Assembly: GCF_000015025.1 (NCBI RefSeq)
Contig: NC_008578.1
Location: 1,740,001-1,772,000 of the forward strand
Length of the DNA: 32,000 bases
Origin: Acidothermus cellulolyticus 11B
Lineage (GTDB): Bacteria > Actinomycetota > Actinomycetes > Acidothermales > Acidothermaceae
Reading direction: 5' to 3'
The position numbers and the translations under genes were made by a program. Within the stretch, counting starts at the first letter, position 1. Every line of letters starts with the position of its first letter. Below, one piece after another: positions 5,528 to 32,000 of this stretch. A model generated the notes under the pieces. The model searched no databases. It worked only from the letters and a program-made list of their open reading frames with translations, and was not told the DNA's origin.

Positions 5528-6554
5528 AGGTTGCCCTCAAACGTTCGATCGATACGTGCGTGTACAGCTGCGTTGTAGCGAGCGTAGCGTGACCAAGTAT
5601 CTCTTGAACGCTGCGCAGATCGGCGCCACCCTCAAGGAGGTGTGTCGCGGCGCTATGGCGCAGCCCGTGTGGACCCAGACGCGGGGCGTCCGGAAGATCA
5701 CGAGTCGCGGCGTACACCACGCGTCGTACCTCCCGCGGGTCGATGCGTCGGCCGCGTACACCAAGAAAGATCGCAGATCCGCTGGCGCCGGTCTGGAACG
5801 CTGGGCGGCCATGCCTCAGCCACTGCTCAACCGCGCGCAGGGCTGGTTGGCCGATCGGCACCGTCCGCTCCTTGTTGCCTTTACCGATCACGTGGATGAC
5901 GGCCCGCACCCAGGCGATGTCATCCGTCTCTAAAGCAACGAGCTCACCAACGCGAATTCCCGTCGCGTAGAGCACCTCAAGAATCGCACGATCACGCAAC
6001 CGGCGGGCCAAGGAGATCGTGTCGACATCTTGCGCGGCGTTTGCCGCCCCGGCGTCCTCGCGGGCGTCCTCGGGTACGCCTATCGCCCCGGCATCCGCTT
6101 CGGCATCCGGGCCGGCACGTTGTTCGGCCCGCTCAAGAACCGCGCGAGCCTGGGCCTGCGTGAGAACATCCGGCAGCGGACGCACCACTTTCGGCGTACC
6201 GAGCCGACGCCCCGGATCGTGGGACATCCACCCCTTCTTGCTGCAGTACGCCGTGAAGACGCGCGCGGCGGCGGCACGTCGGGCGATCGTCGTTCGTGCT
6301 CGACCAACGGTGTCAAGCTTCGCAAGATAGCTGCGCAGCACGGCGACCGTGAGGTCCGCTGGCTCACGGCACCCCAACCGCTCGGCATGATCAACAAGGT
6401 CGCGCAGATCGGTCAGGTACGCCCGAACCGTGTGCGACGAAAGGCTGCGCTCGTACTGAAGGTGGCGCGCGAACAGCTCAACGGCGGTGCCGAGACTCGG
6501 CGTCGTCGCCACATCCGTCACACCCGCTGAAGATACTCTTCGAGTGCCTGGCAC
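5502..6554 (-). CDS. xerC: Tyrosine recombinase XerC (chromosome dimer resolution)
   Basis: The C-terminal catalytic region reads [40 protein letters not shown], and [17 protein letters not shown] lies earlier. Synteny with dprA/yifB/yraN matches M. tuberculosis. The start is GTG at 6554..6552. Confidence 0.9.
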
Positions 6555-7932: not shown

Positions 7933-9476
7933 GCCGGAATCCCGGTACGGAGGTACAGCGCCTCGTCCACGTGTTCGCGACCAGGTCGATCGACATCGGC
8001 GAGATCGGCGAGGGTCCATGCGACCCGCAGCACCCGATCCAAACCTCTCGCCGAGAGCAAACCGGTGTCCAAGGCGCGTTCGACCCCGGCAAGCGCCGAG
8101 CGTGAAAGCGGCCACTGTGACCGCAAATACGGCCCAGGAATTTCCGCATTCGTGCGCCACGGCGTGCCGGACCACCGTTCCGCCGCCCGCTGCTGTGCCA
8201 ACGCAACCCTTTTGGCGACGACTGCTCCCGGCTCGGTATGGCGACGATCCGCCAGCAATTCCGCCCGGCTGACGGGGTCCATGCGCACCTGGAGATCGAC
8301 CCGATCGAGCAGCGGGCCGGACAGTCGGCTGAGATATCGACGTCGCATCATCGGTGAACACGTGCACTCCCGATTTCGGCCGGCCGCAGCGCACGGACAC
8401 GGATTCGCGGCCAAGACGAGAAGAAATCGCGCCGGGTAGCTCGTCGTACCACCGGACCGCGCAATCGTGACCCGGCCGGATTCCAACGGTTGGCGCAGGG
8501 CATCGAGAACAGTCGGGCTGAATTCCGGCGCTTCGTCGAGAAATAACACGCCACGATGCGCCAACGACACCTGACCGGGCCGAGCGAGCCCGCTGCCACC
8601 GCCGATCAGCGCAGCGACGGATGTTGAATGGTGCGGGTCCCGAAATGGCGGCCGCTTAATGATGGGGGTCTCCGCGGGAAGCGCACCAGCCACCGAGTAC
8701 ACAGCCGTCACCTCGAGCGCCTCGGCGTGACTCAAGTCGGGCAGCAGACTGGGAAGCCGGGAAGCAAGCATGGTTTTGCCCGTCCCCGGATCGCCGACCA
8801 GAAACAGGTGATGCCCACCCGCTGCCGCGACCTCGATTGCCCGACGGCCGGTCGGTTGACCAAGAACATCCGCGAGATCACCGTGAGGTGCCGTCAGCAC
8901 AGCGGACGCAGGCACGTCGGTGTCCACACTGCCCTCGGCACCGGGGTCATCCGGCGGTGGCCGGCCCTCGCGCAGGGCGGTGAGAAGGTCACCGAGTCGG
9001 GCGGCTGCCCAGATCTCGACGTCGGGCACGAGACGCGCCTCCCGCGCGTTCGCCGCCGGGACCACGACCCGCCCCCTGCCCGCAGCAGACGCGGCAAGTA
9101 CAGCGGGTAGAACGCCGCGCGTAGGCCGCAGGCCACCGTCAAGGCCGAGCTCGCCGAGAAAGACCATTTCGGCGACGGGCGCAGCTGGCACAGCGCCGGC
9201 CGCAGCGAGAATGGCGACCGCCATGGCCACATCAAGACGTGAGCCGTGTTTCGGCAAATCGGCCGGTGACAGACCAAGGGTGATGCGTCGAGACGGCCAG
9301 CTTTCGCCGGAGTTGAGGATGGCGGCCCTGATCCGATCCCGGGCTTCGGAGAGTGCAGCATCCGGGAGCCCCACGAGCGTACAGCCCGGCAGTCCGGGTG
9401 CCAGATCCGCCTCAACCTCAACCAGGTGACCGATGATGCCCGTGAGGGTGATCGACCACGTCCGTGCAAGGCCCAT
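7929..9476 (-). CDS. YifB/ComM-family Mg-chelatase-like AAA+ ATPase
   Basis: It has an N-terminal Lon-protease-like domain, a Walker A motif in LFLVGDPGTGKTMLASRL, Walker B in GVLFLDEAPEF, and a C-terminal Mg-chelatase subunit ChlI-like tail. Its position between yraN and dprA is the conserved one. Confidence 0.9.
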   Translation of the reverse strand: MGLARTWSITLTGIIGHLVEVEADLAPGLPGCTLVGLPDAALSEARDRIRAAILNSGESWPSRRITLGLSPADLPKHGSRLDVAMAVAILAAAGAVPAAPVAEMVFLGELGLDGGLRPTRGVLPAVLAASAAGRGRVVVPAANAREARLVPDVEIWAAARLGDLLTALREGRPPPDDPGAEGSVDTDVPASAVLTAPHGDLADVLGQPTGRRAIEVAAAGGHHLFLVGDPGTGKTMLASRLPSLLPDLSHAEALEVTAVYSVAGALPAETPIIKRPPFRDPHHSTSVAALIGGGSGLARPGQVSLAHRGVLFLDEAPEFSPTVLDALRQPLESGRVTIARSGGTTSYPARFLLVLAANPCPCAAAGRNRECTCSPMMRRRYLSRLSGPLLDRVDLQVRMDPVSRAELLADRRHTEPGAVVAKRVALAQQRAAERWSGTPWRTNAEIPGPYLRSQWPLSRSALAGVERALDTGLLSARGLDRVLRVAWTLADLADVDRPGREHVDEALYLRTGIPA

Positions 9477-9892
9477 CAGAATGCCCCGCGCACATACTCA
9501 ATCGTCGGACCGTCCTCCTTGCGGTGCAGAATCGCGACGACGTCGAACCGAACGGCGGTGTAGCCGTGCGTGCCTTCCGTTGTGTCAACCCTCGTCGCCG
9601 CGTGCTCGGTCAACCAGGCAACGGCAAGCTGGCGCAGCCGCGCCGCCTTGCGCGGAGTGACCGACTCCAGTGGTTCGCCGAATCCAACGCCGCGACGGGT
9701 CTTGACTTCACACACGACAAGGGTGTAGCCGTCGCGTGCGACGATATCGAGTTCGCCGCTGCGGCACCGCCAATTGCGCGCCAGTATCGTCATGCCGAGT
9801 GTCTGAAGATGCTGCGCAGCCAGCTCTTCGCCGAACCTACCAAGCGCTTCCCGCGCCGACGCCGTCCCTGCCATGCCGCTCACCTCCGCCAT
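9476..9892 (-). CDS. YraN-family (UPF0102) predicted endonuclease
   Basis: The sequence GEELAAQHLQTLGMTILARNWRCRSGELDIVARDGYTLVVCEVKTRRG shows the typical YraN D..E.K core. Its stop shares one base with the start of the next gene (TGATG at 9474..9478). Confidence 0.85.
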   Translation of the reverse strand: MAEVSGMAGTASAREALGRFGEELAAQHLQTLGMTILARNWRCRSGELDIVARDGYTLVVCEVKTRRGVGFGEPLESVTPRKAARLRQLAVAWLTEHAATRVDTTEGTHGYTAVRFDVVAILHRKEDGPTIEYVRGAF

Positions 9893-9924
9893 ACGACCGT
9901 GCGGTCAAGCGTGCCAGCAACGGG

Positions 9925-9954
9925 CAGACCGGCGCGGCGGTTGACGCCGGTCTG
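9925..9954. repeat. Perfect 10-bp inverted repeat (hairpin, 10-nt loop)
   Basis: CAGACCGGCG at 9925..9934 pairs with CGCCGGTCTG at 9945..9954. It lies 33 nt upstream of the yraN start and about 320 nt downstream of the methyltransferase stop. No U-tract is present on either strand. Confidence 0.7.
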
Positions 9955-9971
9955 TGGACGCCGGTGGGCGG

Positions 9972-10014
9972 GGCTGGGGACATTCCTCGAAGTGGCCAGG
10001 CTGGGGGCATTCCT
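9972..10014. repeat. Direct repeat: 16-nt core, 27-nt period, 2 copies
   Basis: Copy 1 (9972..9987) is ggctggggacattcct. Copy 2 (9999..10014) is ggctgggggcattcct. Confidence 0.8.
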
Positions 10015-10108
10015 GCGAGCGGTGCTACCGGACGGCGTTCGACCTGGCCGCTGGTTGGCGGCGTATGCGGGTCGGGCACACTCCTCCGAGCGGAGACACC
10101 GCAAGCGA

Positions 10109-10162
10109 CGCACCTTCAGGTTGAGCCACACCCGCAGGGTGAGACGCACCCTCGGGTTGAGA
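10109..10162. repeat. Imperfect tandem repeat: 18-nt unit, 3 copies
   Basis: The units are cgcaccttcaggttgagc (10109..10126), cacacccgcagggtgaga (10127..10144) and cgcaccctcgggttgaga (10145..10162). Confidence 0.8.
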
Positions 10163-10275
10163 TGACAAAGCCGTGTCGGCAGCGGATTCGGGTCAGCCGA
10201 TGCCACGCCGGAAAGCCGCCGTGTTCTGACGACGGCTCTCCGGGTTGCATCGAGGAAGAGGCGTCAAACCGCGGT

Positions 10276-11328
10276 CTAGGGTTTCGCCTCAAACACAAGA
10301 TTGAACGGGGTCCGGGCGGCCTCCCGGAATTCCGAAAAGCCGGCGTCGACAACTACCTGACGAATAGCCTGCGGCCCCGCTTGCGCGCCAAGCGCATATC
10401 GACCCCCTTGTGCCTTTGCGTTCGGCACACAGAGGAATGTTGAGAAGTTGTAATACACTCGGCCGACGGGATTGAGATTCTCCGCGATACCGTCACCCGC
10501 AAGCGGCTCTACGATCAACCATGTTCCGTCCGGTGTCAGGACGTCGCGAATATGGCGTGCTGCTGCGAATGGATCGCCCATGTCGTGCAAGCAATCGAAC
10601 GTCGCCACCAGATCGTATCCCGATCCCGGGAAGGACTGCGCCGTGTTGACGTCGAACGTCGTGCGGTCGGCGACGCCGGCGTCGGCCGCACGCTTGCGCG
10701 CCAAGGCGATCGAACCATCGTGGTAGTCGAATCCGGCGAACCGCGACCGCGGAAAAGCCTTCGCCATCAGGATGGTTGACGCACCAAGGCCGCATCCCAC
10801 GTCGGCAACCGTGCCGCCGTCCTGCAGTTTCGCCTCGACGCCGTCCAGCGCCGGAATCCAGCTCGTCACCAAGTTGCCTGCGTAATTCGGGCGGAAGAAC
10901 TGCTCGCAGCCGACGAAGACATCGGCGTCATGTTCATGCCACCCGACACCAGCGCCGGTGAGGAACGCTTCGCGGATACGGGAAATGGCACGCAATGCTC
11001 CAAGCGCGAGAACGAACGCACCGGGGAAATACAAGGCGCCGTCGGGATTCGTGAGAGCGAATGCTTGTTCTTCGTTGAGCGAATACTGCTCGGTTTGGGG
11101 ATCCACGTCGACGTAGCCGCCCGCTGCCTGTCCGCGCAGCCATTCGGTGAGATACCGAACGTCGGTCCGCGTGCGCTGGGCAAGCTCCGCCGGCGTGGCT
11201 GGACCGGATGCAAGGGCCTGATAGAGGCCCAACTCGTGACCGAGGACGACGTTGCCCGCCGCCATCGTCGCCCCAAGGTCTCCTGCGAAGCGACCCACGA
11301 ATTCCATGAGTTTGTCGTGATTGACCAT
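10276..11328 (-). CDS. Class I SAM-dependent methyltransferase with N-terminal winged-helix domain (Rv2258c-like architecture)
   Basis: SAM-binding motif I reads VADVGCGLGASTILMA, the post-I acidic residue lies in FAGFDYH, and later motifs read YDLVATFDCLHDMGDP and DGTWLIVEP. The N-terminal ~100 aa resemble the wHTH dimerisation domain of this family. GGGAG lies just upstream of ATG 11328. Confidence 0.85.
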   Translation of the reverse strand: MVNHDKLMEFVGRFAGDLGATMAAGNVVLGHELGLYQALASGPATPAELAQRTRTDVRYLTEWLRGQAAGGYVDVDPQTEQYSLNEEQAFALTNPDGALYFPGAFVLALGALRAISRIREAFLTGAGVGWHEHDADVFVGCEQFFRPNYAGNLVTSWIPALDGVEAKLQDGGTVADVGCGLGASTILMAKAFPRSRFAGFDYHDGSIALARKRAADAGVADRTTFDVNTAQSFPGSGYDLVATFDCLHDMGDPFAAARHIRDVLTPDGTWLIVEPLAGDGIAENLNPVGRVYYNFSTFLCVPNAKAQGGRYALGAQAGPQAIRQVVVDAGFSEFREAARTPFNLVFEAKP

Positions 11329-11609
11329 GAGCTCCCGCCCCCCTTTCGCATGCGGCTCACGTCCCTTCTGGACGAAGCCTCGAGAACCTCAAGCGCCCGG
11401 TCGGACGTTCCGCGGGCCACTATCGCGCGTCTGTATGGCGTGATGGTCACAACCCCCGACCGACCACTCGACACGGTCAGCCTCGACCACACGCTTTGCA
11501 GAATTCTTGCAGCCGGCTTGCACATGACGGACGGACGCGCCGCAACGCGTTCCCGTGCGCCCTGGCGTTTCGATACGGAGCGGACCAGCCCGCCCCCAAC
11601 GTGCGATCG

Positions 11610-12479
11610 TCAGTCAACACCGGCCGACGGAAACGCTGACACAACTGACTGCGTCTCGCTGCCGATCGCATCCCGCATCTGACCAACGTCCTCCCGGAGC
11701 AGGGCGGTGTACAGCATCCGCGTACGGACCGACGGTTCGACGCCAAGCTCTTCGGTCAGCCGATCCCGCAACCGCAGGTAGACGGATATTGCGCGCGGAA
11801 TTTCGCCAAGCGCCCAGCATACGAGAATCAACAGGCGATGGAGAGATTCATTCCAGGGCTCGGCGGCCGTCAAATATTCCAATGCCCCTACCGCTCGGCC
11901 GGGCTGTTCTGATCGCAGCGCGGCGACGCTGAGAATCCGCCCAGCCTGCTGCCAGAGCAGACGTCGCTGCTCCTCAAGGCCGGTGATCCACGGCGCTGGA
12001 GGTTCATCCTCCAACGCCCGGCCCACGCCCGCGAGCTGGAACGCCTGCGCCGCACGGATCGTTGCGAGGCGCACATCTCCGGCGTACACCAGTCGCTCCG
12101 CGTCGTCCGTAAGGTACGCAACATCGTCGAAATCAAGGTGGACAAGGGGCGCCTCGGCCAACCGGTAACCGCCCGCGAATCGCTCAATGTAAGGCGCGCC
12201 CAGTAAGGCCCGGAGCCGGCTCACCAGAGTAGCGACGCTGCCCGCGGTGTCACGCGGCATCTCCTCGCCCCAGAGCAGCTCGGCAATACGATCCGCCGAG
12301 AGAATACGACCGCGTTCGGCGGCCAGCAGTTTGAGCAAGGTGCGCGCCTTCCGCCCGGCGAGCTGCGAGAGGTCCATGACCTGGCCGCCAACGCGGGCCG
12401 TGAACGGACCTATCAGCGTCAACGACAACGGCGGCGGTTGGGCGCTGACCGTCGCCGACGGCGTACTGTGCCGATACAC
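11610..12479 (-). CDS. SARP/AfsR-family transcriptional regulator (OmpR-type winged helix plus BTAD)
   Basis: The sequence LTLIGPFTARVGGQVMDL..RKARTLLKLLAAERGRILSADRIAELLWGEE....ATLVSRLRALLG...GYRL is the SARP DNA-binding domain. The C-terminal helical part, ending in YLRLRDRLTEELGVEPSVRTRMLYTALL, is a BTAD signature. The start is ambiguous: GTG 12479, or TTG 12428 / 12422. Confidence 0.8.
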   Translation of the reverse strand: MYRHSTPSATVSAQPPPLSLTLIGPFTARVGGQVMDLSQLAGRKARTLLKLLAAERGRILSADRIAELLWGEEMPRDTAGSVATLVSRLRALLGAPYIERFAGGYRLAEAPLVHLDFDDVAYLTDDAERLVYAGDVRLATIRAAQAFQLAGVGRALEDEPPAPWITGLEEQRRLLWQQAGRILSVAALRSEQPGRAVGALEYLTAAEPWNESLHRLLILVCWALGEIPRAISVYLRLRDRLTEELGVEPSVRTRMLYTALLREDVGQMRDAIGSETQSVVSAFPSAGVD

Positions 12480-12520
12480 CGCTCTCCCCCCTGATCCGAG
12501 GCGGCTGTCTGAAAGACGGT

Positions 12521-12544
12521 GACCGCGCGTTGGACGCCGCGGTC
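12521..12544 (-). terminator. Candidate hairpin downstream of the rnhB-DUF2469 unit
   Basis: GACCGCG (12521..12527) pairs with CGCGGTC (12538..12544), giving a 7-bp stem and 10-nt loop about 30 nt past the DUF2469 stop. On the minus strand only a short CUUUC follows. Confidence 0.25.
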
Positions 12545-12575
12545 TCCCGCACGGCTGGCGCCGTTGACCGACGGT

Positions 12576-12887
12576 TCAGCCCCCGCTGGGAATCTGGAGA
12601 TCGCTCTTGGCCAATTCCTCGATGTTGACGTCCTTGAACGTTACGACTTTCACATTCTTCACCAAACGCTGCGGGCGGTACATATCCCAGACCCAGGCGT
12701 CCGACATGGTGATTTCGAAGAAAACATCACCGCCTGCATTGCGCACTTCGAGGTTGTACTCGTTGGTGAGGTAGAAGCGCCGCTCAGTCTCGATCACGTA
12801 GCGGAACAAGCCGACGACGTCCCGATACTCCCGGTAGAGCTGGAGCTCCATGTCGGTTTCGTAGTTTTCGAGATCCTCGGCACTCAT
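12576..12887 (-). CDS. DUF2469-family conserved actinobacterial protein (Rv2901c-like)
   Basis: The sequence [42 protein letters not shown]...[28 protein letters not shown] matches my memory of this family, which always sits just downstream of rnhB. There is an ATGA overlap with rnhB at 12884..12887. Confidence 0.88.
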
Positions 12888-13807
12888 GGGATCTCCAGCA
12901 GCTCGGCGGGACGGGACACGTCCCCATTGTCGCGCAGGTCAGCCGCACGATTCTGATCGACAAGCCGGCCAGCCGGCCCCGCCGCCGCGGGACGAGCCGC
13001 CGCGGACGCGGCCCCGGCCGAGCCCGCCGGGCCGGGCACTGCCTCAGCCGGGCCGGATGCGAAGCCAGGAGAGTCGTCGGAGTCGGCCAGCTCGGTGATT
13101 CGCAGCTCCATCCGGCCCCCAGCCCGGCGGACGGTCACGAACGAGCGCCGGTGTTCCGGGCACGGTCCGTGGCGGGCGAGCGCAGCGCGGTGTCCCGCGG
13201 TCACATACCCCTTATGGGTAGCGAACTCGTACATCGGGAACTTTTCGTGCAATTCCACCATGAGTCGATCCCGGGTCACCTTCGCCACGACGGACGCGGC
13301 TGCAATGCACGCGACGGCCTCGTCACCCTTGCAGACCGCTAGGCCGGGAGCGTTCAATCCCGCGATGGAGAAGCCGTCCGTGAGAACGTACGCGGGCCGG
13401 ACCGCAAGGCCGGCGACCGCCCGGCGCATCCCGGTGATGTTGGCTGCGTGCACCCCCAACTCGTCGACTTCGGAGGAGGGAATCACCACAACCGACCACG
13501 CTAGTGCCCGGGAGATGATCTCGTTGTAGATCGACTCGCGTGCAGCGGGAGTGAGCTGCTTGGAGTCCGCCAACCCGGCGATGCGGTTCCGCCGATCGCT
13601 CCCCAGAATCACGGCCGCGACGACGAGGGGACCGGCGCACGCGCCTCTGCCGGCTTCGTCCACCCCGGCGACCGGTTCGAGACCAAGCCGAGCCAGCCGT
13701 CGCTCGTAGCGGTAGAGATCGACAAGTCGGTGACGCTCAGCTGCGCAGGATCGACGCTCGCTGCGCACCCGCGCAGGCCCAAGCCGCGCAGTCGTCGACG
13801 CTCCCAT
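12884..13807 (-). CDS. rnhB: Ribonuclease HII with Ala/Pro/Gly-rich C-terminal tail
   Basis: The sequence [23 protein letters not shown]...DSKQLT...VLTDG...KGD....[13 protein letters not shown]...YEFATHKGY carries the RNase HII catalytic motifs. I prefer ATG 13807. The ORF-track start at 13939 would overlap the upstream ORF by 49 nt. Confidence 0.9.
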
Positions 13808-13882
13808 CGGATACACCCTAGGCGACGCGGTCCCGGGCGTGCTCACGGTCGGCGCGGACGGAGCGGCGTCCAGTCGGCGCGC

Positions 13883-13892
13883 AAAGCGCCCT
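13883..13892. repeat. Right-hand-gene-proximal copy of the 10-bp direct repeat AAAGCGCCCT that flanks the 475-aa ORF cassette
   Basis: The exact decamer aaagcgccct occurs at 13883..13892 (overlapping the ORF stop) and again at 15380..15389. Confidence 0.6.
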
Positions 13893-15318
13893 ACGCCATC
13901 GGCAGGACAAGTTCGAACCGCCACCGCGTCCCCGTCCATGGATACAACGCCACCACGACCTGTCCCGGCGGGGCCGCGGAACGCGAGGTGACCTCATCGT
14001 GGACGATACGTGGATAAATACTCGTCCAATTTTCCAGAATGTGCCGGAGAACCACATCGAGACCGTCACCGCAGGTGCGCAGCTCATACGTCAGCCAATC
14101 GAAAATCTCTTGGGCGAGGTCCTTGGTGCGCGTCGGCTTCCACCACTCAAAGTCAAGGCCGCAGTACATAAAGTCAGTGCCTAAAACGTAGGAAGCCGCT
14201 AAAATACTGACGGAATCGTTAGAGCCGACGCCTGACACACGCCCAAGTTGCAGCCCACTGCCCTGCCCCGCCGCATTGCCGGCACCAACAGCAGCTGGAA
14301 CTTCTTTATAACCCAGAACGCCGCAGAGAAAATCACGAAATTCAGCACGTGCGGTCTGCAGATCCACGCGACGTCCTGCGAGGGTATTCAGCAACGAACC
14401 CAGTTCCCAGGTAGCAAAATGCCCGTACCGCGCGCTGAACACTCCAACCTCGGTCAGCCGAAAGCGGTCGTCAAAGTCGAGGAGCACATAGCCCACCAGT
14501 TGCAACAGAGTTCTCATCGTGATCGTCGATTCCGCGGAGGTCTTGAGTTCAAGCAGCAGCCCGGCCGCGATGAGATCTGCGTCGGCGGCAAGAAGTTGGG
14601 AGCCGGTAAAGACCGGTCCAAGTGCCCACTCGCCGACACGATCCGAAAGCCGGGGGAGGAGCACGGTGTCGAAAAGGTGTCGGAAGGCGATCAGCTGCTC
14701 GATACCCGCAGGAGGTGCCAGCAACAAAAGGTCCGCTGCAGTAGGGAGCTGGCCGCGCAGTTGAGCAAGCGGACCGCTGCGCGCTACCGTCGGACCAGCA
14801 CGGTACACCTCGGTCAGGAGGGCCAACGCCCAGCACGCTCGGGCCAACACCTCCGCGTCGACCACACTCCCCGGGATAGGTCCTGCGAACACAGCCGCGT
14901 GGTCGCCGTTCGCACCCACGAATGGAACATCGAGGCGCCGAGCCAGGTCAATCAGAGCCGGGCAGAGAATGAGTCCCCCGTTTCCGGCAATGACAGCACC
15001 GCCGCGCGCCACCGAAAGATCCGGCTGTGGATGGATGAGAAACCGCAGGAGCCAGTCAGCGGCGGTCCCCACCGTGCCGGGATTGACCGCGGCGGCGGGT
15101 GCTGGCGGAACGACGATGTCTCGAGGCCGGGTCGCTCGAATAGCTCGCTGCACCTGCGGCACCCCAGCGCCATACCGCTCCTGGAGAAAGCGCCGCACCG
15201 GCGAACCGGTCGTCTTGAGCTCTTGCGTCAGTGACCGAAACATCTCGGGCCTTTCGTCGGTAGCACACCAAGAACGCACCGCCGAAGTAAAGGAATCGGC
15301 TGCTGATTTCTCCGTCAT
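13891..15318 (-). CDS. Hypothetical 475-aa protein with a RecB/Cas4-like PD-(D/E)XK nuclease signature; accessory insertion
   Basis: It is a long ORF on the operon strand with an ATG start at 15318. Numbered from M1, the motifs are D246-A-D248-LI, LLL-E257-L-K259-T and Q273-LVG-Y277 (codons 14488..14583). A Gly-rich linker covers residues 341-367, followed by a Trp-rich C-terminal module. G+C is lower than in the neighbours and many codons end in A/T. No clear SD is visible. Confidence 0.7.
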
Positions 15319-15379
15319 TAGGCTGGTCGGCTACGCCTGTCACCGCAGGTACCCGTCTCATGCGTCCGCCACACCGCGG

Positions 15380-15389
15380 AAAGCGCCCT
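15380..15389. repeat. Second copy of the 10-bp direct repeat AAAGCGCCCT
   Basis: The exact decamer lies between the lepB stop (15413) and the 475-aa ORF start (15318). Confidence 0.6.
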
Positions 15390-15412
15390 GCTCAGCACCG
15401 GCATTGCCAGCC

Positions 15413-16570
15413 TCAGCGGCTGCCCCGTCGGTGTACCCGAGGATGCGCGCATCGGCGCCGCAGCCGCAGGACGCCGACCGGTGTGACCGCGAGGACGCCG
15501 ATGGCCAGGGGCAGTGCCGACGGCATCGGCCGAACCTCACCAGCCGCCACCGCAGCCGCATTCGGAATCGCGTGATAGCCCGGCGGAATCGAGAGCAGCC
15601 GCCAATGGCTCGGGGGCCAGACGACGACAAACGCCCTGCCAATGATCTTGCTCTCTGGGATGGTTCCGCCGCCGGGATCGCCGCGATGCGCTCGGGAATC
15701 GGCGGAATTGTCCCGGTGATCACCTTCCACCCAGACCCGCCCGGGTGGTACGACGATGTCGAACCGGCTGCCCGGCCCGCTCAAATTCACCTGCGTCGTC
15801 GCGGGCTGCGCCGGCTCGCCCGACGACAAGTAGTTCTCCTGCAGCGGAACACCGTTCACCAGCAGGTGCCCGACCGCATCGCAACACTGGATGTGGTCAC
15901 CCGGCACACCGATCACCCGTTTGATGAAATCCCGTTCCCCGGGGGGCGCAAAGCCGAGAAAACCGCCGATGTCGCGAATAACACGCGCCACCGGATTGCT
16001 CGGAGTCGCTGTGGAAACCTCCGGCGTCCAGGAATCCTCGCCGTTGAAGACGATGATTTGCCCACGCTGCACGTGACCGACCTTGTACGAAAGGAGGTTC
16101 ACGATGACGCGATCGCCGACGTGCAGGGTGTTCTCCATCGACCCGGACGGAATGTAAAAGGCCTGAAAGAAAAATGTGTGAACGACCACCGCAATGACAA
16201 GGGCGACCACGAACAGCAGCCCGGTCTCCGCCCACCACGGCAGCCGGTTCTTCTTCGCCGCCCGTCGGCGACGTCGGTCCGACGCCGGCCGTTGACTGAA
16301 CCCTGTCAGCCGCCCGCCACCGGATGCCGGCGGTTGACTGCTCGACACCGCTCGTGCTCCACCGGCCGCCGTCCGATCGGCATCGACACCGGAGTGTCGG
16401 TCACCGACAACAGCTCCCCCGCCATCGGGAAGCCCGCCATCGGGAAGGGATTGCGCGGTGCCGTGAATGGATCCCGTGTCGCTGGGGAAGGAACGTGCGC
16501 TGTCGGGAGCGGACGGCGACGCCGGCCAGGGCGGCGGGGGGACGTCCCGTCCTGGCATCTCCTCGACCAC
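15413..16570 (-). CDS. lepB: Signal peptidase I
   Basis: The catalytic Ser box is IPSGSMENTL. Other conserved boxes are GDRVIVN, RGQIIVF, FIKRVIGVPGD and GDHRDNSADSR. A TM anchor LLFVVALVIAVVVH follows a long Pro/Gly/Ser-rich N-terminus. The start is GTG 16570 (ATG 16558 is an alternative). Confidence 0.9.
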   Translation of the reverse strand: MVEEMPGRDVPPPPWPASPSAPDSARSFPSDTGSIHGTAQSLPDGGLPDGGGAVVGDRHSGVDADRTAAGGARAVSSSQPPASGGGRLTGFSQRPASDRRRRRAAKKNRLPWWAETGLLFVVALVIAVVVHTFFFQAFYIPSGSMENTLHVGDRVIVNLLSYKVGHVQRGQIIVFNGEDSWTPEVSTATPSNPVARVIRDIGGFLGFAPPGERDFIKRVIGVPGDHIQCCDAVGHLLVNGVPLQENYLSSGEPAQPATTQVNLSGPGSRFDIVVPPGRVWVEGDHRDNSADSRAHRGDPGGGTIPESKIIGRAFVVVWPPSHWRLLSIPPGYHAIPNAAAVAAGEVRPMPSALPLAIGVLAVTPVGVLRLRRRCAHPRVHRRGSR

Positions 16571-27667: not shown

Positions 27668-29098
27668 ATGACCGACAATCCGCCGCCCATTTCCGGCGAC
27701 CCGCACGCCATCGCCGAAACCGCCCGTCGCCTCATCGCGGCCGCGACCGGCGTGTCCGACGTCGGGCAACGCCTGCATTTCCTTGCTGCGACAGACAATT
27801 TCTGGTGGGGTACCGCGGCGGAGCGTGCGCACGATCGGACGCTTCACCTCGCCGCACCGCTGACCGTCGTTGCGGAGGCGTATCGCGCCGGCGGGAAGGT
27901 GCTGCGGCGCTACGCCATCCAATTGGACGACCTCCAGCACGAAGCCGAACGCGCCCAGCGTCGGGTCAGCCAGGCGGAAAGCGACGTGGCGGCGGCCCGC
28001 CACGCGCTCACGAGTGCCCTCGCGCACGATGCCGCAACCCGATCCGTCGCATGGGGACTGGGGGTTCCACCGCCGCCGGCCACCGCGCCGCGGTACAGCG
28101 CAGCCGTGACGGACGCCGAACACCAGCTCGCCGCCGCGAAAGAGCAGTTCACGTCCTGTCAAGAGAAATTTGCAGAATTGGCGCGGTCCACCGCACGCCG
28201 ATTGGACAACCTCCAACCGCCGGCACGCGACCACCGTCCGTGGTGGCACACCGTCACTCACCCGATGGCCCACTGGATTTCCCATCACTGGGCACACTTT
28301 CTCCGGCAGACCGCGCGGCTTGCCCAGAGCATCGGCACGGTCGCCGGTGTTGTCGCCCTGCTTCTCGCGGCGGTGGCCATCGCCTTTCCACCGCTGGAAA
28401 TCGCAGCCGGCGCCACGGAAGCCCTTGCCGCCGTCAGTAACACAACAGCGGGCGTCGCCCGGGCCGCTGTCGAGCTCTCCGAACCCACCGGCCGAACGGC
28501 GGGACTGGTGGACCTGGCGACCGTCAGTCTTCCCGGCCCGGCGCGGCGCATCGTCGCGAAAACCGGCGTCGGCCGGCTGGAAGCACCGACGCATCTCGCC
28601 ATCAGGCGGCCGCCACCGCCGTCGCGGGACATCCCCCTCGGGTTCCGCAATCGAGACGAATTCGCCGCATTTGGCGAGAGATTACAACGCGGATTAGCTG
28701 AGGCCGGGTATCCTAACGCGGTGGCAATCATGCAAGGGAGTTCGGTGACCGGCGTCAGCTTCCGGACGAAGGAGCCGTTCGACGTCGGACGCCGCAGCGA
28801 TTTCGATATCGCGTTGTGCGACGAGTCGCTGTTCCGCGCAGCAAAACATCACGGTGTTGATCTGCGCGCCTATGAGCGGACCGCTCCATTGAAAGCCCGA
28901 AAGAAAGAGAGCGTCGAGATCGCCCGACAGCTTGGCCTTGACGGACTCCAGCGCGAGCTCAGCGCCCGGGCCCGCCGCGACGTGGACTTCATGATTTTCC
29001 GGTATACCGGGACGGCGCTCATTCGGGCGCAGAGTATTCCTTTTCCGCCGTGGCGGGACCGGGTGCTCGGCCCGTCGCAACCGACACGATTCCAGTGA
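27668..29098 (+). CDS. Putative polymorphic-toxin-like protein: WXG100/T7SS-type N-terminal helical domain, one TM-like segment, and a C-terminal nucleotidyltransferase-fold-like domain
   Basis: Third-codon positions are G/C-biased in this frame. The N-terminus reads GDPHAIAETARRL....FWWGTAAERAHDR...AYRAGGKVLRRYAIQLDDLQHEAERAQRR, with the WxG at 27803..27811. A hydrophobic segment IGTVAGVVALLLAAVAIAFP spans 28331..28390. The C-terminus has QGSS (from 28736), SDFDIAL (28799..28807) and DVDFMIF. I prefer the ATG 27668 start to TTG 27605 or GTG 27626. Confidence 0.68.
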   Translation: MTDNPPPISGDPHAIAETARRLIAAATGVSDVGQRLHFLAATDNFWWGTAAERAHDRTLHLAAPLTVVAEAYRAGGKVLRRYAIQLDDLQHEAERAQRRVSQAESDVAAARHALTSALAHDAATRSVAWGLGVPPPPATAPRYSAAVTDAEHQLAAAKEQFTSCQEKFAELARSTARRLDNLQPPARDHRPWWHTVTHPMAHWISHHWAHFLRQTARLAQSIGTVAGVVALLLAAVAIAFPPLEIAAGATEALAAVSNTTAGVARAAVELSEPTGRTAGLVDLATVSLPGPARRIVAKTGVGRLEAPTHLAIRRPPPPSRDIPLGFRNRDEFAAFGERLQRGLAEAGYPNAVAIMQGSSVTGVSFRTKEPFDVGRRSDFDIALCDESLFRAAKHHGVDLRAYERTAPLKARKKESVEIARQLGLDGLQRELSARARRDVDFMIFRYTGTALIRAQSIPFPPWRDRVLGPSQPTRFQ

Positions 29099-29107
29099 GG
29101 ACGACGC

Positions 29108-29548
29108 ATGACCACACGGACTTCGCGCCGGACGCATCTCGCCGACGTGTACGGCGCATTCGGCGACGCATCGGGAGCATGGGATCTCGCCCTGGTCGGC
29201 ATGGGACGGGTGCTGCAGATCCTGGAGACCCAACTTGGCCTCAGCTTCGAGGCGCATGACAGCTCGTACTGCAACGGCCTGTACTTTGCGCAGTGCGGAC
29301 CGGACGAATCGTTCTCCGTGACGGTCTACAACAATGCGCCCTTCGACGACCTCGAGGAGATCGTGCATCTCCAATTCGCCGACTTTCCGGTCGTTATCAA
29401 CGTGTCCGGAGATCCCGCGGCGGTCGAACGGATTCGCCACCATTTCCGCGAACTCGGATACACGCTGCTGACACGCACGACCGTCGTAGAGTCCGATGAC
29501 CCGCCGCAGGACGCCTCCGACGACGACCGCTCTCGGACGCCGCAGTGA
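29108..29548 (+). CDS. Small acidic protein (146 aa), candidate cognate immunity protein
   Basis: The ATG at 29108 lies 9 nt after the upstream stop, and GAGGA (29097..29101) overlaps that stop. Codon bias is good. The C-terminus is acidic (ESDDPPQDASDDD). No family was recognised. The LETQLGLSF....NGLYF stretch is only loosely SUKH/SMI1-like. Confidence 0.6.
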   Translation: MTTRTSRRTHLADVYGAFGDASGAWDLALVGMGRVLQILETQLGLSFEAHDSSYCNGLYFAQCGPDESFSVTVYNNAPFDDLEEIVHLQFADFPVVINVSGDPAAVERIRHHFRELGYTLLTRTTVVESDDPPQDASDDDRSRTPQ

Positions 29549-29565: not shown

Positions 29566-32000
29566 CTACGCCGGCTGCGGTTCGAGGTCCCGGTCCCGCA
29601 ACCGCTGACTGATGACCGTTGAGACACCGTCGCCGCGCATCGAAATACCGTACAACGCGTCGGCGATTTCCATCGTCGGTTGCTGGTGCGTGACGATGAT
29701 GAGTTGACTGCTCTCCCGCAACTCTTCGAAAATGTCCAACATCCGACGAAGATTCGTCTCGTCGAGGGCGGCTTCCACCTCATCGACGACGTAGAACGGG
29801 CTGGGCCGTGCCTTGAAGAGCGCGACCAGGAATGCGAGTGCGGTCAGTGACCGTTCGCCGCCGGAGAGCAGCGACAGACGCTTCACTTTCTTCCCCGCCG
29901 GCCGGGCTTCAATGTCGATACCGGTGGCGAGCAGGTCATTCGGCTCGGTGAGCACCAGGCGTCCCTCACCGCCGGGGAACAATCGTGCAAACACCTGCTC
30001 GAATTCCCGCGCGGTGTCCGCAAACGCCGACGCAAAGACCTCCTGCACCCGCTCATCCACCTCACGGACGATTTCCAGCAAATCACGCCTGCTCTTCTTC
30101 AGGTCTTCGAGCTGCTCGCTGAGAAAACGGTGGCGTTCCTCGAGCGCTGCGAATTCCTCCAAGGCCAGCGGATTCACCTTGCCGAGCGCAGCGAGGGCGC
30201 GTTCGGCCGACCGGGCCCGCTTTTCTTGTTCGGCCCGCACGTACGGGACAGTCTCGACGGCGTCCGTCTCACCGTCGGTTGCATCGGTCTCGGCCGCGAC
30301 CGGCACCGGAACATGCGGACCATATTCCGCGACCAGCGTGTCCGCGTCGACGCCGAATTCCTCCATTGCCCGCCCGGTGACCTGCTCCATCCGCAGCCGC
30401 AGTTCGGCGCGGGCCACCTCGTCACGGTGCACGGCATCCGTCAACTTCTCGAGTTCGTCACCGACTGCACGCAACTCGTCCCGGACCCGGGCAAGCTCCG
30501 CCTCCCGGGCGGCACGGTCATCATCCGCGACGCGCCGCTCGGCGTCCGCCTCGGTCAACGACCGCTCCAGCCGGCGCAGAATCACCCGCGAAGCCTGGGC
30601 CACCGCGGCTGCGACGACCGCCTCACGTCGCCGCACTTCCCGCTGCCGGGCCGCCCGAATCCGAGCCGCCCGTTCCGCCTGTGCTGCAGCGGACAGCTCC
30701 TCAGCCCGCTGCAACGCCGCCCGATAGCGTTCGTTCGCCGTGCCAACGGCAAGCCGTGCCTCAGTTTCTTCGGCGCGTGCGTCCGCGACAAGCTCTGCCA
30801 GCCGATCCCGCTCCTCCGCCGAGGGTTCTTCGGGGACGTCGTCCGCCTCTTGGGCGGCCGCAAGGGCGCGCTCCAATTCGGCAAGCCGCTCCCGATCCCG
30901 CTCGTTGGCCTCCCGGGCCTGCGCAATGGAACCGGCAAGCCGATCCGCTTCGGCCATTGCGGCCCGCGCCTGCGCTCCGAGGTGGCCAAGCTGCTCGGCA
31001 ATAGCGGCCATGGCGGCGTCCGACTCGTGGAGTTGGGCAAGCGCGGCGTCCGCCGCAGCCGCGGCCTGTTCACGGGCCTGTTCCGCCGCGGCTATCTCGA
31101 ACCGAAGCTGGTGCTGGCGTGCGACCACCTCGTCCAGCTGGCGGCGTGCATCGTCCAGGGCGGCCTGGACCTCCAAGAGGGACGGCGCTGTCGCTGACCC
31201 ACCGGCAGCCTCGGCGGCGGCCAGCAGGTCACCGTCCCGCGTGACGACGCGAAGGCCGGGGTGCCGGGTCACGAGCGCGTGCGCAGTCTGCAGGTCGTCG
31301 ACGACGACAACGTTGCGGAGCAGAACGTCCAGCGTGCCGCGGAATTCGGGTGCGGCATCGACGAGATCCCGTAACCAGCGGCCATCCGGCGGTGCTGTAC
31401 CGGCATGCCCGGATTCGGGCAATCCTCCGATCAATAGGGAGGTACGACCCGCGTCCTCTTCCTTGAGCCGCCGCATGCCGGCGAGTGCTGCGTCGACCGA
31501 GGTGACAGCGACGCCGTTGGCGACATCCCCAAGGACGGCGGCCAACGCGGCCTCGTAGCCGGCCTCGATCCGCAGCGTGCGGGCGACGGCACCCACCGTC
31601 CCCGGTACGGCGGCATCAAGCAGCGCCGCGGCACCGTCCTTGCGAGTCGCACTCAGCGCAAGCGCATCCACCCGAGCCGCGAGCGAGGCGCGCGCCCGCT
31701 CAAGCTCCCGTTCGCGCTCTCGAAGCGCCGCCAGCCGTTCCTCCGCCGCGGTCAGCGCCTCCGCCGCCCGTTCGTAGTCGGCATCCAGTCCGACTTCCCC
31801 TTCGTCGAGACCGGCGATCTGGCTTTCCAGTGCCTGAAATTCCTGCTGCGCCCGGTCCGCACGGGCCCGCGCCTCAGCAGCGGCGGCGGCAAGCCGGCCG
31901 ATCTCCTCCTCACCGGCCGCGACCCGAGTCCGCTGCGCAGCGACCTGGCCGGCCAGCCGGGCCAGCGTCTCCCGCCGATCCGCAGCCGCCCGCAGCGCGA
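29566..32000 (-). CDS. smc: Chromosome segregation protein SMC, C-terminal ~810 codons (continues beyond the right edge)
   Basis: The C-terminal ABC head shows the signature LSGGERSLTALAFLVALFKARPSPFYVVDEVEAALD. A long Ala/Glu/Arg/Leu coiled coil and a hinge (GTVGAVARTLRIEAGYEAALAAVLG) lie upstream. I checked by hand that the frame stays open from 31671 to at least 31860. The GTG at 31671 in the ORF track is internal. Confidence 0.95.
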   Translation of the reverse strand, partial: ALRAAADRRETLARLAGQVAAQRTRVAAGEEEIGRLAAAAAEARARADRAQQEFQALESQIAGLDEGEVGLDADYERAAEALTAAEERLAALRERERELERARASLAARVDALALSATRKDGAAALLDAAVPGTVGAVARTLRIEAGYEAALAAVLGDVANGVAVTSVDAALAGMRRLKEEDAGRTSLLIGGLPESGHAGTAPPDGRWLRDLVDAAPEFRGTLDVLLRNVVVVDDLQTAHALVTRHPGLRVVTRDGDLLAAAEAAGGSATAPSLLEVQAALDDARRQLDEVVARQHQLRFEIAAAEQAREQAAAAADAALAQLHESDAAMAAIAEQLGHLGAQARAAMAEADRLAGSIAQAREANERDRERLAELERALAAAQEADDVPEEPSAEERDRLAELVADARAEETEARLAVGTANERYRAALQRAEELSAAAQAERAARIRAARQREVRRREAVVAAAVAQASRVILRRLERSLTEADAERRVADDDRAAREAELARVRDELRAVGDELEKLTDAVHRDEVARAELRLRMEQVTGRAMEEFGVDADTLVAEYGPHVPVPVAAETDATDGETDAVETVPYVRAEQEKRARSAERALAALGKVNPLALEEFAALEERHRFLSEQLEDLKKSRRDLLEIVREVDERVQEVFASAFADTAREFEQVFARLFPGGEGRLVLTEPNDLLATGIDIEARPAGKKVKRLSLLSGGERSLTALAFLVALFKARPSPFYVVDEVEAALDETNLRRMLDIFEELRESSQLIIVTHQQPTMEIADALYGISMRGDGVSTVISQRLRDRDLEPQPA

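Follow-up and report, generated by a model that had tools for sequence, protein, structure and literature searches.

The hypothetical gene Acel_1555 of Acidothermus cellulolyticus 11B lies on a 1477-nt insertion in the spacer between lepB and rnhB, and this insertion is polymorphic in natural Acidothermus populations. The locus was analyzed within a 32,000-nt stretch of the chromosome (NC_008578.1, positions 1,740,001 to 1,772,000; hereafter the window, with all coordinates counted from its first letter). The insert proper occupies positions 13898-15374, is read on the minus strand, and is missing from the empty-site alleles. A 20-nt chromosomal sequence, which is single-copy in the empty alleles, brackets the insert when the site is occupied. 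The insert consists of one gene, with no mobility gene. The product of this gene, annotated as "hypothetical protein" (WP_049751452.1; identified with the open reading frame, ORF, of the window by exact-sequence match), is a predicted DNA nuclease that retains all catalytic residues, judging from its sequence and its structural model. As a whole, these features are best explained by a non-autonomous islet carrying the gene of a probable defense or selfish nuclease and inserted by site-specific recombination in trans, an explanation that we hold with slightly better than even confidence. The insertion would be due to a recombinase acting in trans or, less probably, to an event with long target duplication.

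Close relatives of this locus were collected as contigs encoding exactly the RplS and the DUF2469 protein of the window, and were then compared with the window by blastn and junction alignment. Six empty alleles were found (L134/L143, L141, L142, L149, L151, and L152), with flanks 98-99% identical to the window. The six contigs derive from five sequencing sources; L149 belongs to the NCBI metagenome-assembled genome (MAG) GCA_023512095.1 and L152 is from JGI. In every empty allele, lepB is followed by rnhB, the distance from the lepB stop codon to the rnhB ATG is 108 nt, and the repeat is present in one copy. An earlier note on this DNA, made from its letters alone, had predicted a lepB-rnhB spacer of about 108 nt after deletion of one repeat copy with the interval, and had proposed to look for a single repeat copy in empty sites; exactly this arrangement was seen in all six contigs. 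Aligned by blastn, each empty contig matches the window in two blocks, a left one ending at 15375 and a right one beginning at 13897, and these share 20 nt of the query. The presence/absence difference is 1497 nt, composed of the 1477-nt insert and one 20-nt repeat copy. The spacer of the empty site folds no better than shuffled sequence (z = 0.48). The assembly of MAG GCA_023512095.1 (L139, L149) breaks within the 3' end of lepB, adjoining the insertion site, and its contig ends overlap at window positions 15478-15554; a break at this locus would fit strain heterogeneity in the sample.

In the earlier note, the repeat was recognized as the decamer AAAGCGCCCT. The window contains only two exact occurrences of this decamer, at 13883-13892 and 15380-15389, although the true repeat is longer. 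The bare 10-mer is marginal, with at least 10 nt shared in 2.1% of placements of equal-sized segments 1.5 kb apart in the window and in 10% of placements when the segments are 200 nt long. Within the window, the repeat extends to 14/15 positions; read against the empty sites, the repeat unit is 20 nt, GGCG-Y-AGGGCGCTTTCCGCG, with 19/20 positions identical between the two copies of the occupied allele L004, which comes from an ENA metagenome. In gene orientation, the empty junction reads ...CCCGGTGC / GGCG[T/C]AGGGCGCTTTCCGCG / CCGACTG.... The lepB-side target copy, located at 15375-15394 (minus strand), is TGAGC-AGGGCGCTTTCCGCG in the window and GGCGC-AGGGCGCTTTCCGCG in L004, where the occupied left junction reads ...GGTGC / GGCGCAGGGCGCTTTCCGCG / GTGTGGCGGACGC.... 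The rnhB-side target copy, located at 13878-13897 (minus strand), is GGCGT-AGGGCGCTTT[G/C]CGCG, and the occupied right junction reads ...CTGCCGAT / GGCGTAGGGCGCTTT[C/G]CGCG / CCGACTGG.... The ORF extends to the final base of the insert, and its last codon and TAG stop come from this copy of the duplicated target.

The direct succession of lepB and rnhB, which the earlier note had taken as the usual layout, was also found in about 26 Propionibacteriales/Nocardioides genomes, all lacking the ORF at this position; this order-level set was formed by relatives at 62-68% RnhB identity (Nocardioides). As reported before, a 1.43-kb ORF lies in the window between the two genes on the same strand (longest extent 13891-15318, minus strand, 475 amino acids), with flanking genes that match PF10502 and PF01351. 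The GC content of the insert is 61.7% versus a window median of 67%, the lowest of any 1477-nt stretch in the 32 kb. The GC content at third codon positions (GC3) is 0.66 in the ORF versus 0.71-0.86 in the neighboring genes, with a minimum of 0.40 at residues 301-360. The hand counts of 52, 77, and 62 G+C per 100 nt given in the earlier note for the ORF, rnhB, and rplS were exact. Empty sites, composition, and synteny together support the proposed acquisition of a lower-GC single-gene cassette within a direct repeat; neither of the two findings that had been named as contrary to it, a family-wide presence of the ORF at this position with host-like GC3 or empty sites lacking the decamer, was observed. 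The opposite polarity, with the gene ancestral at this site and the "empty" alleles produced by deletions between the two repeat copies, is hardly credible. Recombination between the 20-nt repeats would regenerate the observed empty site, and some of the empty alleles may be secondary losses. The two repeat copies themselves, however, demand an insertion event, the gene is absent here in the approximately 26 related genomes and has an atypical composition, and its closest relative outside Acidothermus (62% identity over residues 22-331) is located in an unrelated context.

Occupied alleles exist on two flank backgrounds: the window type, represented by several Logan assemblies 100% identical to the window, and L004, which is 98.8% identical. 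The flanks of the window and L004 differ at 1.09% of positions. Outside one patch, the cassette differs at 4 of 1412 nt versus 15.4 expected from the flanks (P = 6.5e-4), which suggests that the split of the two backgrounds predates the cassette, which moved between them. In the excluded patch, located at 13968-14032 (minus strand), the window and L004 differ at 10 of 65 nt (P = 4.5e-9 at the flank rate), which leads to six amino acid changes. Of the 13 nucleotide differences that separate the two ORF alleles, 10 fall within this patch, some codons being doubly changed; in total, 8 of the 13 differences are non-synonymous. A partial third repeat copy, CCGCGGAACGCG, is located inside this patch at 13974-13985. 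A second divergent patch, at 15392-15452, comprises the 3' tail of lepB and the part of the spacer that immediately precedes the left repeat. Over this patch, the window haplotype departs from all six empty alleles and from L004, including 6 of the 23 nt that precede the core. The left junction of L004 is identical to that of the L141-type empty allele; a window-type empty allele (...GGTGCTGAGC before the core) was not found among the empty alleles. Both patches look like recombination tracts.

Such a pattern can also be considered for a free-standing, homing-endonuclease-like selfish gene, which would cut empty alleles and be copied into them by repair from an occupied allele. Acel_1555 resembles homing endonuclease genes in being a single predicted nuclease gene between two highly conserved genes and in varying in its presence among relatives of 98-99% identity. 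The lower divergence of the cassette relative to its flanks and the mosaic patch beside the junction, similar to a co-conversion tract, point in the same direction. Homing, however, creates no 20-nt target duplication, whereas a duplication is present here, and the intact core is still present twice in the occupied alleles. Moreover, family members are found at many unrelated sites and in helicase operons, with no conserved homing site, and no similarity to known homing-endonuclease families was detected in any search run. Homing is therefore considered improbable.

No terminal inverted repeats were found in the insert, the best terminal alignment having a score of 11, which corresponds to noise. 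No transposase or integrase domain was found in the insert using Pfam, NCBIfam, and PADLOC. A transposon, an insertion sequence, or a miniature inverted-repeat transposable element was ruled out on these two grounds. An integron gene cassette was also rejected: the ORF reaches the last base of the insert, leaving no room for attC, and there is no adjacent integrase. With an integrase linked to other family members as the tblastn query, nothing was found at 13800-15400 below E ~8. No match to a tRNA or Rfam RNA was found anywhere in the window. The earlier observation that no integrase, transposase, or tRNA adjoins the cassette is in line with these searches, the only recombinase-like ORF of the window (~5556-6062) being located 8 kb from the insert. 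This ORF is probably a conserved neighbor outside the cassette, because a recombinase gene occupies the matching position in the empty-site contig L150.

The insert contains an imperfect direct repeat of 33 nt, named D1. Its leader copy (15339-15371, minus strand) lies just within the insert, 3 nt from the left end, and its second copy (14065-14097, minus strand) lies in the region coding for the C-terminal extension, 167 nt from the right end. The two copies are identical at 27/33 positions in the window and at 28/33 in L004. The local alignment score of D1, 36, exceeds all 796 controls, with maxima of 34 for shuffled sequences (n = 500) and 31 for window controls (n = 296). D1 could consist of recombinase arm-type sites, be left over from a duplicated coding segment, or be due to chance.

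Translation of Acel_1555 probably starts at ATG 15243 (Met26), since a GAAAGG Shine-Dalgarno sequence is located 6 nt upstream, the family homology begins there, and the RefSeq model has 450 amino acids; the coding sequence thus occupies 13891-15243 (minus strand). With this start, the A/T-ending first codons pointed out in the earlier note belong mostly to the 5' leader, and the codon string quoted there skips intervening codons. The N-terminal region, residues 26-225 (14644-15243, minus strand), is mainly alpha-helical and conserved in the family. Its invariant columns in the family alignment A1 include T82, G84, AADWL 86-90, and W163. The following region, residues 226-335 (14314-14643, minus strand), forms a predicted PD-(D/E)xK nuclease core with D246, E257-x-K259, Q273-xxx-Y277, and D281. 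The catalytic signature, D...(D/E)xK...QxxxY, is intact in Acel_1555. In the family alignment, D246, K259, G276, Y277, and D281 are invariant and D248 and Q273 are nearly so, whereas position 257 is occupied by E in Acel_1555 and by D in most family members. The PADLOC models RTasPDDEXK and PDC-S61 match 24 (best E 4.7e-12) and 11 of 55 family members, respectively.

In an AlphaFold2 model built with the family alignment, most of residues 30-335 have a predicted local distance difference test score (pLDDT) >90; this holds for most of the N-terminal region, and the core is also modeled at >90. The model contains strands 229-233, 249-251, 254-259, 290-295, and 300-305 and helix 268-279, in the strand-strand-strand-helix-strand-strand order expected for the PD-(D/E)xK fold. 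In this model, D246 precedes strand 2, E257 and K259 are located in strand 3, and Q273 and Y277 are in the helix; these positions agree with the alpha-beta-beta-beta-alpha-beta core of the superfamily, whose motif residues belong to strands 2 and 3. The helical N-terminal region would be packed against this core. A Foldseek search of BFVD matched helicase-nuclease fusions, an Exo VIII PDDEXK-like protein, PD-(D/E)XK proteins, and RecB-family exonucleases, with E values between 3e-4 and 8e-3 and template modeling scores of ~0.2. Sequence searches of PDB with Acel_1555 and the family profile returned nothing meaningful. Acel_1555 shares the D...(D/E)xK...QxxxY motif on a strand-strand-helix arrangement with RecB/Cas4-like nucleases and with RTasPDDEXK, the nuclease of DRT (defense-associated reverse transcriptase) systems. 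It differs from them in its helical N-terminal region of ~200 residues and in the lack of both a reverse-transcriptase partner and the four-cysteine Fe-S cluster known for Cas4, AddB, and Dna2. Only C162 is conserved in alignment A1, and in the absence of a conserved four-cysteine cluster Acel_1555 is not a Cas4 proper. With considerable confidence, the Acel_1555 family is regarded as a new family-level branch of RecB-like PD-(D/E)xK nucleases.

The nuclease core is followed by a Gly/Ala/Ser-rich linker, residues 336-368 (14215-14313, minus strand; GC3 ~0.40-0.45, pLDDT <50), and by a C-terminal extension, residues 369-475 (13894-14214, minus strand), present only in the Acidothermus alleles and modeled with a pLDDT of 44-64. 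The GC3 of residues 361-475, 0.69, is above GC1 and GC2, as in the core. According to the match ranges of the homologues, no family match extends past residue ~360. No match to the tail was found by tblastn in 85 family loci or on plasmids, and the matches of a local phmmer search were limited to the four Acidothermus entries. Word-index searches that used 110-140 residues of the tail as the query were also empty, but these searches missed P0001, which is 96% identical there, and are thus weak evidence. The possibility that the tail is a relic of a downstream tyrosine recombinase gene was rejected, since no similarity was found. The tail of ~140 residues, whose function is uncertain, appears to have been added in this lineage. 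Long members elsewhere in the family end in unrelated C-terminal tails, for example Zn-ribbon-like repeats, so variable C-terminal modules recur in the family. Among the distant members, P0140, P0256, P0263, P0137, and P0163 have extensions of 100-200 residues with repeated CxxC / "GKWH" Zn-ribbon-like modules.

The family is actinobacterial and unannotated. An exhaustive search yielded 1765 representative clusters and a word-index search >336 homologues. The homologues match only residues ~26-340 of Acel_1555 and are typically 305-365 amino acids long. Genomic contexts were surveyed in 85 family loci. A GajB/UvrD-like helicase gene was found immediately upstream (-1) in 12 of them, and this gene is preceded by one for a DruE-like DEAD/MZB helicase of ~2150 amino acids (PADLOC DruE, E 2e-42). 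The resulting three-gene order, in which genes for the ~2150-residue DruE-like DEAD/Helicase_C/MZB helicase and a ~740-residue GajB/UvrD-like helicase are followed by a ~305-residue PD-(D/E)xK member, recurs in L050 (1-8915), L053 (1-8927), L076, L077, L091, and L133; in L053, the array adjoins McrBC and SNF2 genes. A tyrosine recombinase gene (PF00589, 3e-24) is located immediately downstream (+1) on the same strand in 8 of the 85 loci, representing about five distinct elements. In L071/L072/L073, L093, L098, L127, and L074/L075, this gene begins 9-24 nt downstream and encodes PF00589 together with a SAM-like N-terminal domain; L071 contains a second recombinase, 45% identical, ~5 kb upstream. 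The neighbors in other loci include type I restriction-modification (R-M), Vsr, Hypoth_Ymh, McrBC, SNF2, TraG, and RHS genes. The search for homologues in unrelated contexts, suggested in the earlier note, thus led to defense islands, integrase-linked positions, and R-M neighborhoods.

None of the surveyed family loci elsewhere lies in the vicinity of lepB or rnhB. Cassettes bracketed by direct repeats are not general in the family, as the longest bracketing repeat in the other loci has 11 nt, a length that corresponds to the 95th percentile of the null. The 20-nt core does not occur in the 610 kb that surround the other family genes, which also speaks against a transposon, and no bracketing repeats were found around the pairs of family gene and integrase gene. 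The family was not found in phages, and only two weak matches, both from Streptomyces, were found on plasmids. Based on the contexts in the survey, the family travels with defense and mobile DNA, the Acidothermus copy being a solitary, site-specific oddity. Acel_1555 most likely serves to cut invading DNA, by itself or together with partners encoded at other loci, because other family members ride in defense islands and mobile elements.

The third position of the family gene, after the DruE-like and GajB/UvrD-like helicase genes, in ~14% of the sampled loci is reminiscent of Druantia and YprA-DruE systems. This three-gene layout differs from the Druantia, ARMADA, BRIGADE, and TALON layouts as given in the available parts of PMC12458937. 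The Acidothermus copy differs further in that it has no adjacent DruE or other helicase gene and is flanked by lepB and rnhB.

According to the favored explanation, the islet would enter as a circle by conservative site-specific recombination between its 20-nt core and the identical chromosomal core, with the recombinase supplied in trans. It would then spread between Acidothermus strains via homologous recombination of the flanks. The excised form would carry an attP-type junction, ...CTGCCGATGGCGTAGGGCGCTTTCCGCGGTGTGGCGGACGC.... A recombinase in trans is favored because an identical core of 20 nt is typical of att sites and below the >30-bp range of long target duplications, because tyrosine recombinases accompany relatives of the gene, and because D1, with copies near both ends of the insert, could represent arm-type sites.

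Islets without an integrase that are flanked by att sites, including cis-mobilizable elements (CIMEs), are known near the att sites of integrative and conjugative elements (ICEs) and integrative and mobilizable elements (IMEs), usually at tRNA genes or at the ends of conserved genes. Such elements behave in the manner proposed here, and CIMEs derive from a recognizable parent element. The Acidothermus insert is similar to CIMEs in its short length, its direct repeats corresponding to a single-copy chromosomal site, the lack of its own recombinase, and its strain-variable presence. The identity of the end repeats with a single-copy empty site, which characterizes ICEs, IMEs, and CIMEs, was seen here in the six empty alleles; a recombinase gene, also expected inside or adjoining such elements, was not found in the insert or next to it. 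The Acidothermus insert further differs from CIMEs in that it has one gene only and that no parent element, integrase, or excised form is known for it.

A number of observations weigh against a functional nuclease islet inserted by a recombinase in trans. Regarding the gene, Acel_1555 itself has no match in Pfam, NCBIfam, or PADLOC, including the models RTasPDDEXK and PDC-S61. No significant fold match was found by Foldseek against PDB, where the best hit was the Dna2 nuclease (E 0.048), followed by a restriction-endonuclease-like protein and Cas4, also non-significant. When residues 200-340 are modeled alone, the nuclease region reaches a pLDDT of only 63; because of this poor model, the region seems to depend on the helical N-terminal region for folding. 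The suggested defense role is guilt by association, based on a minority of loci, and the Acidothermus copy has no partner genes. Finally, Acel_1555 could be decaying, because amino acids are altered by 8 of the 13 nucleotide differences in the ORF and because its tail is poorly modeled and has no detected homologue. Regarding the mechanism, the cassette lacks a linked recombinase and none is known to act on the core, no circular or excised form was observed, and a target-site duplication made by a staggered break would account for the repeated 20 nt equally well.

In its full form, the decay explanation accepts the insertion as real but treats the gene as a non-functional passenger, with the tail resulting from read-through into formerly non-coding or scrambled DNA after the loss of a stop codon. 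The low GC3 and pLDDT of the linker, the termination of the ORF only at the target repeat, and the 10 changes in 65 nt leading to six amino acid changes would fit this explanation, as would the 8 non-synonymous differences among the 13 in the ORF and the lack of tail homologues. On the other hand, the frame of 450 codons is intact in both diverged alleles with all the catalytic residues kept, the codon composition of residues 361-475 (GC3 above GC1 and GC2) is like that of the core, and variable C-terminal extensions also occur in other family members. A decaying passenger is thus regarded as rather unlikely.

The staggered-break explanation states that a double-strand break in the lepB-rnhB spacer, staggered by ~20 nt and perhaps made by the encoded nuclease itself, captured a linear fragment by end joining, and that fill-in duplicated the 20 nt. 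A related class has been described by intraspecific genome comparison, in which R-M units are inserted with long target duplications and without mobility genes (Furuta, Abe & Kobayashi 2010; PMC2853133); the class is defined by a pair of R and M genes and a duplication >30 bp. The Acidothermus insert is similar in carrying a nuclease-encoding, defense-type gene, in its direct target duplication, in the lack of mobility genes, and in its size of <20 kb. It differs in having no methyltransferase and a duplication of 20 bp. The single nuclease gene with direct repeats, accompanied by no integrase, transposase, or terminal inverted repeats, would suit such an event, and PMC2853133 describes this class for type I-IV R-M genes, with one case of 26/26 bp. 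The ORF is open up to the border of the insert and ends with a stop codon of the duplicated target, as expected of a captured fragment, and the absence of the core from all other family loci provides no evidence of a dedicated att site. The duplication, however, is shorter than the >30 bp used in PMC2853133 to separate the class from site-specific recombination, and the mechanism is without experimental proof. The two flank backgrounds require homologous recombination as a second step, which is likewise needed by the favored explanation. Overall, the staggered break is a serious alternative but a distinctly less probable one than recombination in trans.

In a stronger version of the staggered break, the nuclease would be its own mobility function, making a staggered cut ~20 nt apart at GGCG-Y-AGGGCGCTTTCCGCG, where the gene was captured. 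This version appears very doubtful. If true, a self-cutting nuclease would represent a one-gene self-inserting element and would account for the mechanism behind the "insertion with long target duplication" of defense genes, which has long been observed but lacks an explanation.

The movement of defense-type genes that lack their own mobility gene is still poorly understood. The present locus provides a clean natural experiment, with a cultivable and sequenced type strain, base-defined junctions, six empty alleles, and two occupied haplotypes. Direct-repeat-flanked acquired islets and PD-(D/E)xK defense nucleases are already known kinds. The new elements are the unannotated family, the DruE-like/UvrD-like/nuclease operon layout, absent from the consulted part of PMC12458937, and the very clean insertion of one gene in a type strain for which empty sites exist in nature. 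The family, with its ~1765 clusters, has no Pfam or NCBIfam model, and its links to DruE-like/UvrD-like helicases and to tyrosine recombinases are recurrent. A literature search for "Acel_1555" gave no result. As the insertion is located within the rplS-lepB-rnhB housekeeping cluster, it bears on rnhB expression in strain 11B.

Both flanking genes are read on the same strand as the insert. The upstream gene, lepB (15413-16570, minus strand; signal peptidase I, PF10502), is present in occupied and empty alleles. The downstream gene, rnhB (12884-13807, minus strand; RNase HII, PF01351), most likely starts at ATG 13807 and not at 13939. No terminator-like sites were found between lepB and rnhB, and Acel_1555 would probably be transcribed by read-through from lepB into rnhB. 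The LepB of the window is ~45 residues longer than the region alignable to Nocardioides LepB (window 15413-15550); this C-terminal extension, a hydrophobic stretch followed by arginines, may be a membrane anchor. The Ala/Gly/Pro-rich C-terminal tail of RNase HII is length-polymorphic (window 12964-12980, 3' end of rnhB), and the protein counted from ATG 13807 has 325 amino acids in the empty-site alleles versus 307 in the window type.

Excess divergence from the empty-site contigs was found in window 9180-12980, which is located between the DUF2469 gene and the UPF0102 gene and includes genes for a BTAD regulator and an Rv2258c-like methyltransferase. The identity in this segment is 96.4% with 16 gaps, versus ~98.3% across the remaining region. 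The only other stretch of the window with a GC content as low as that of the insert (~62%) is 28694-29443 (minus strand), an ORF of 249 amino acids with no Pfam match that adjoins smc (29566-31671).

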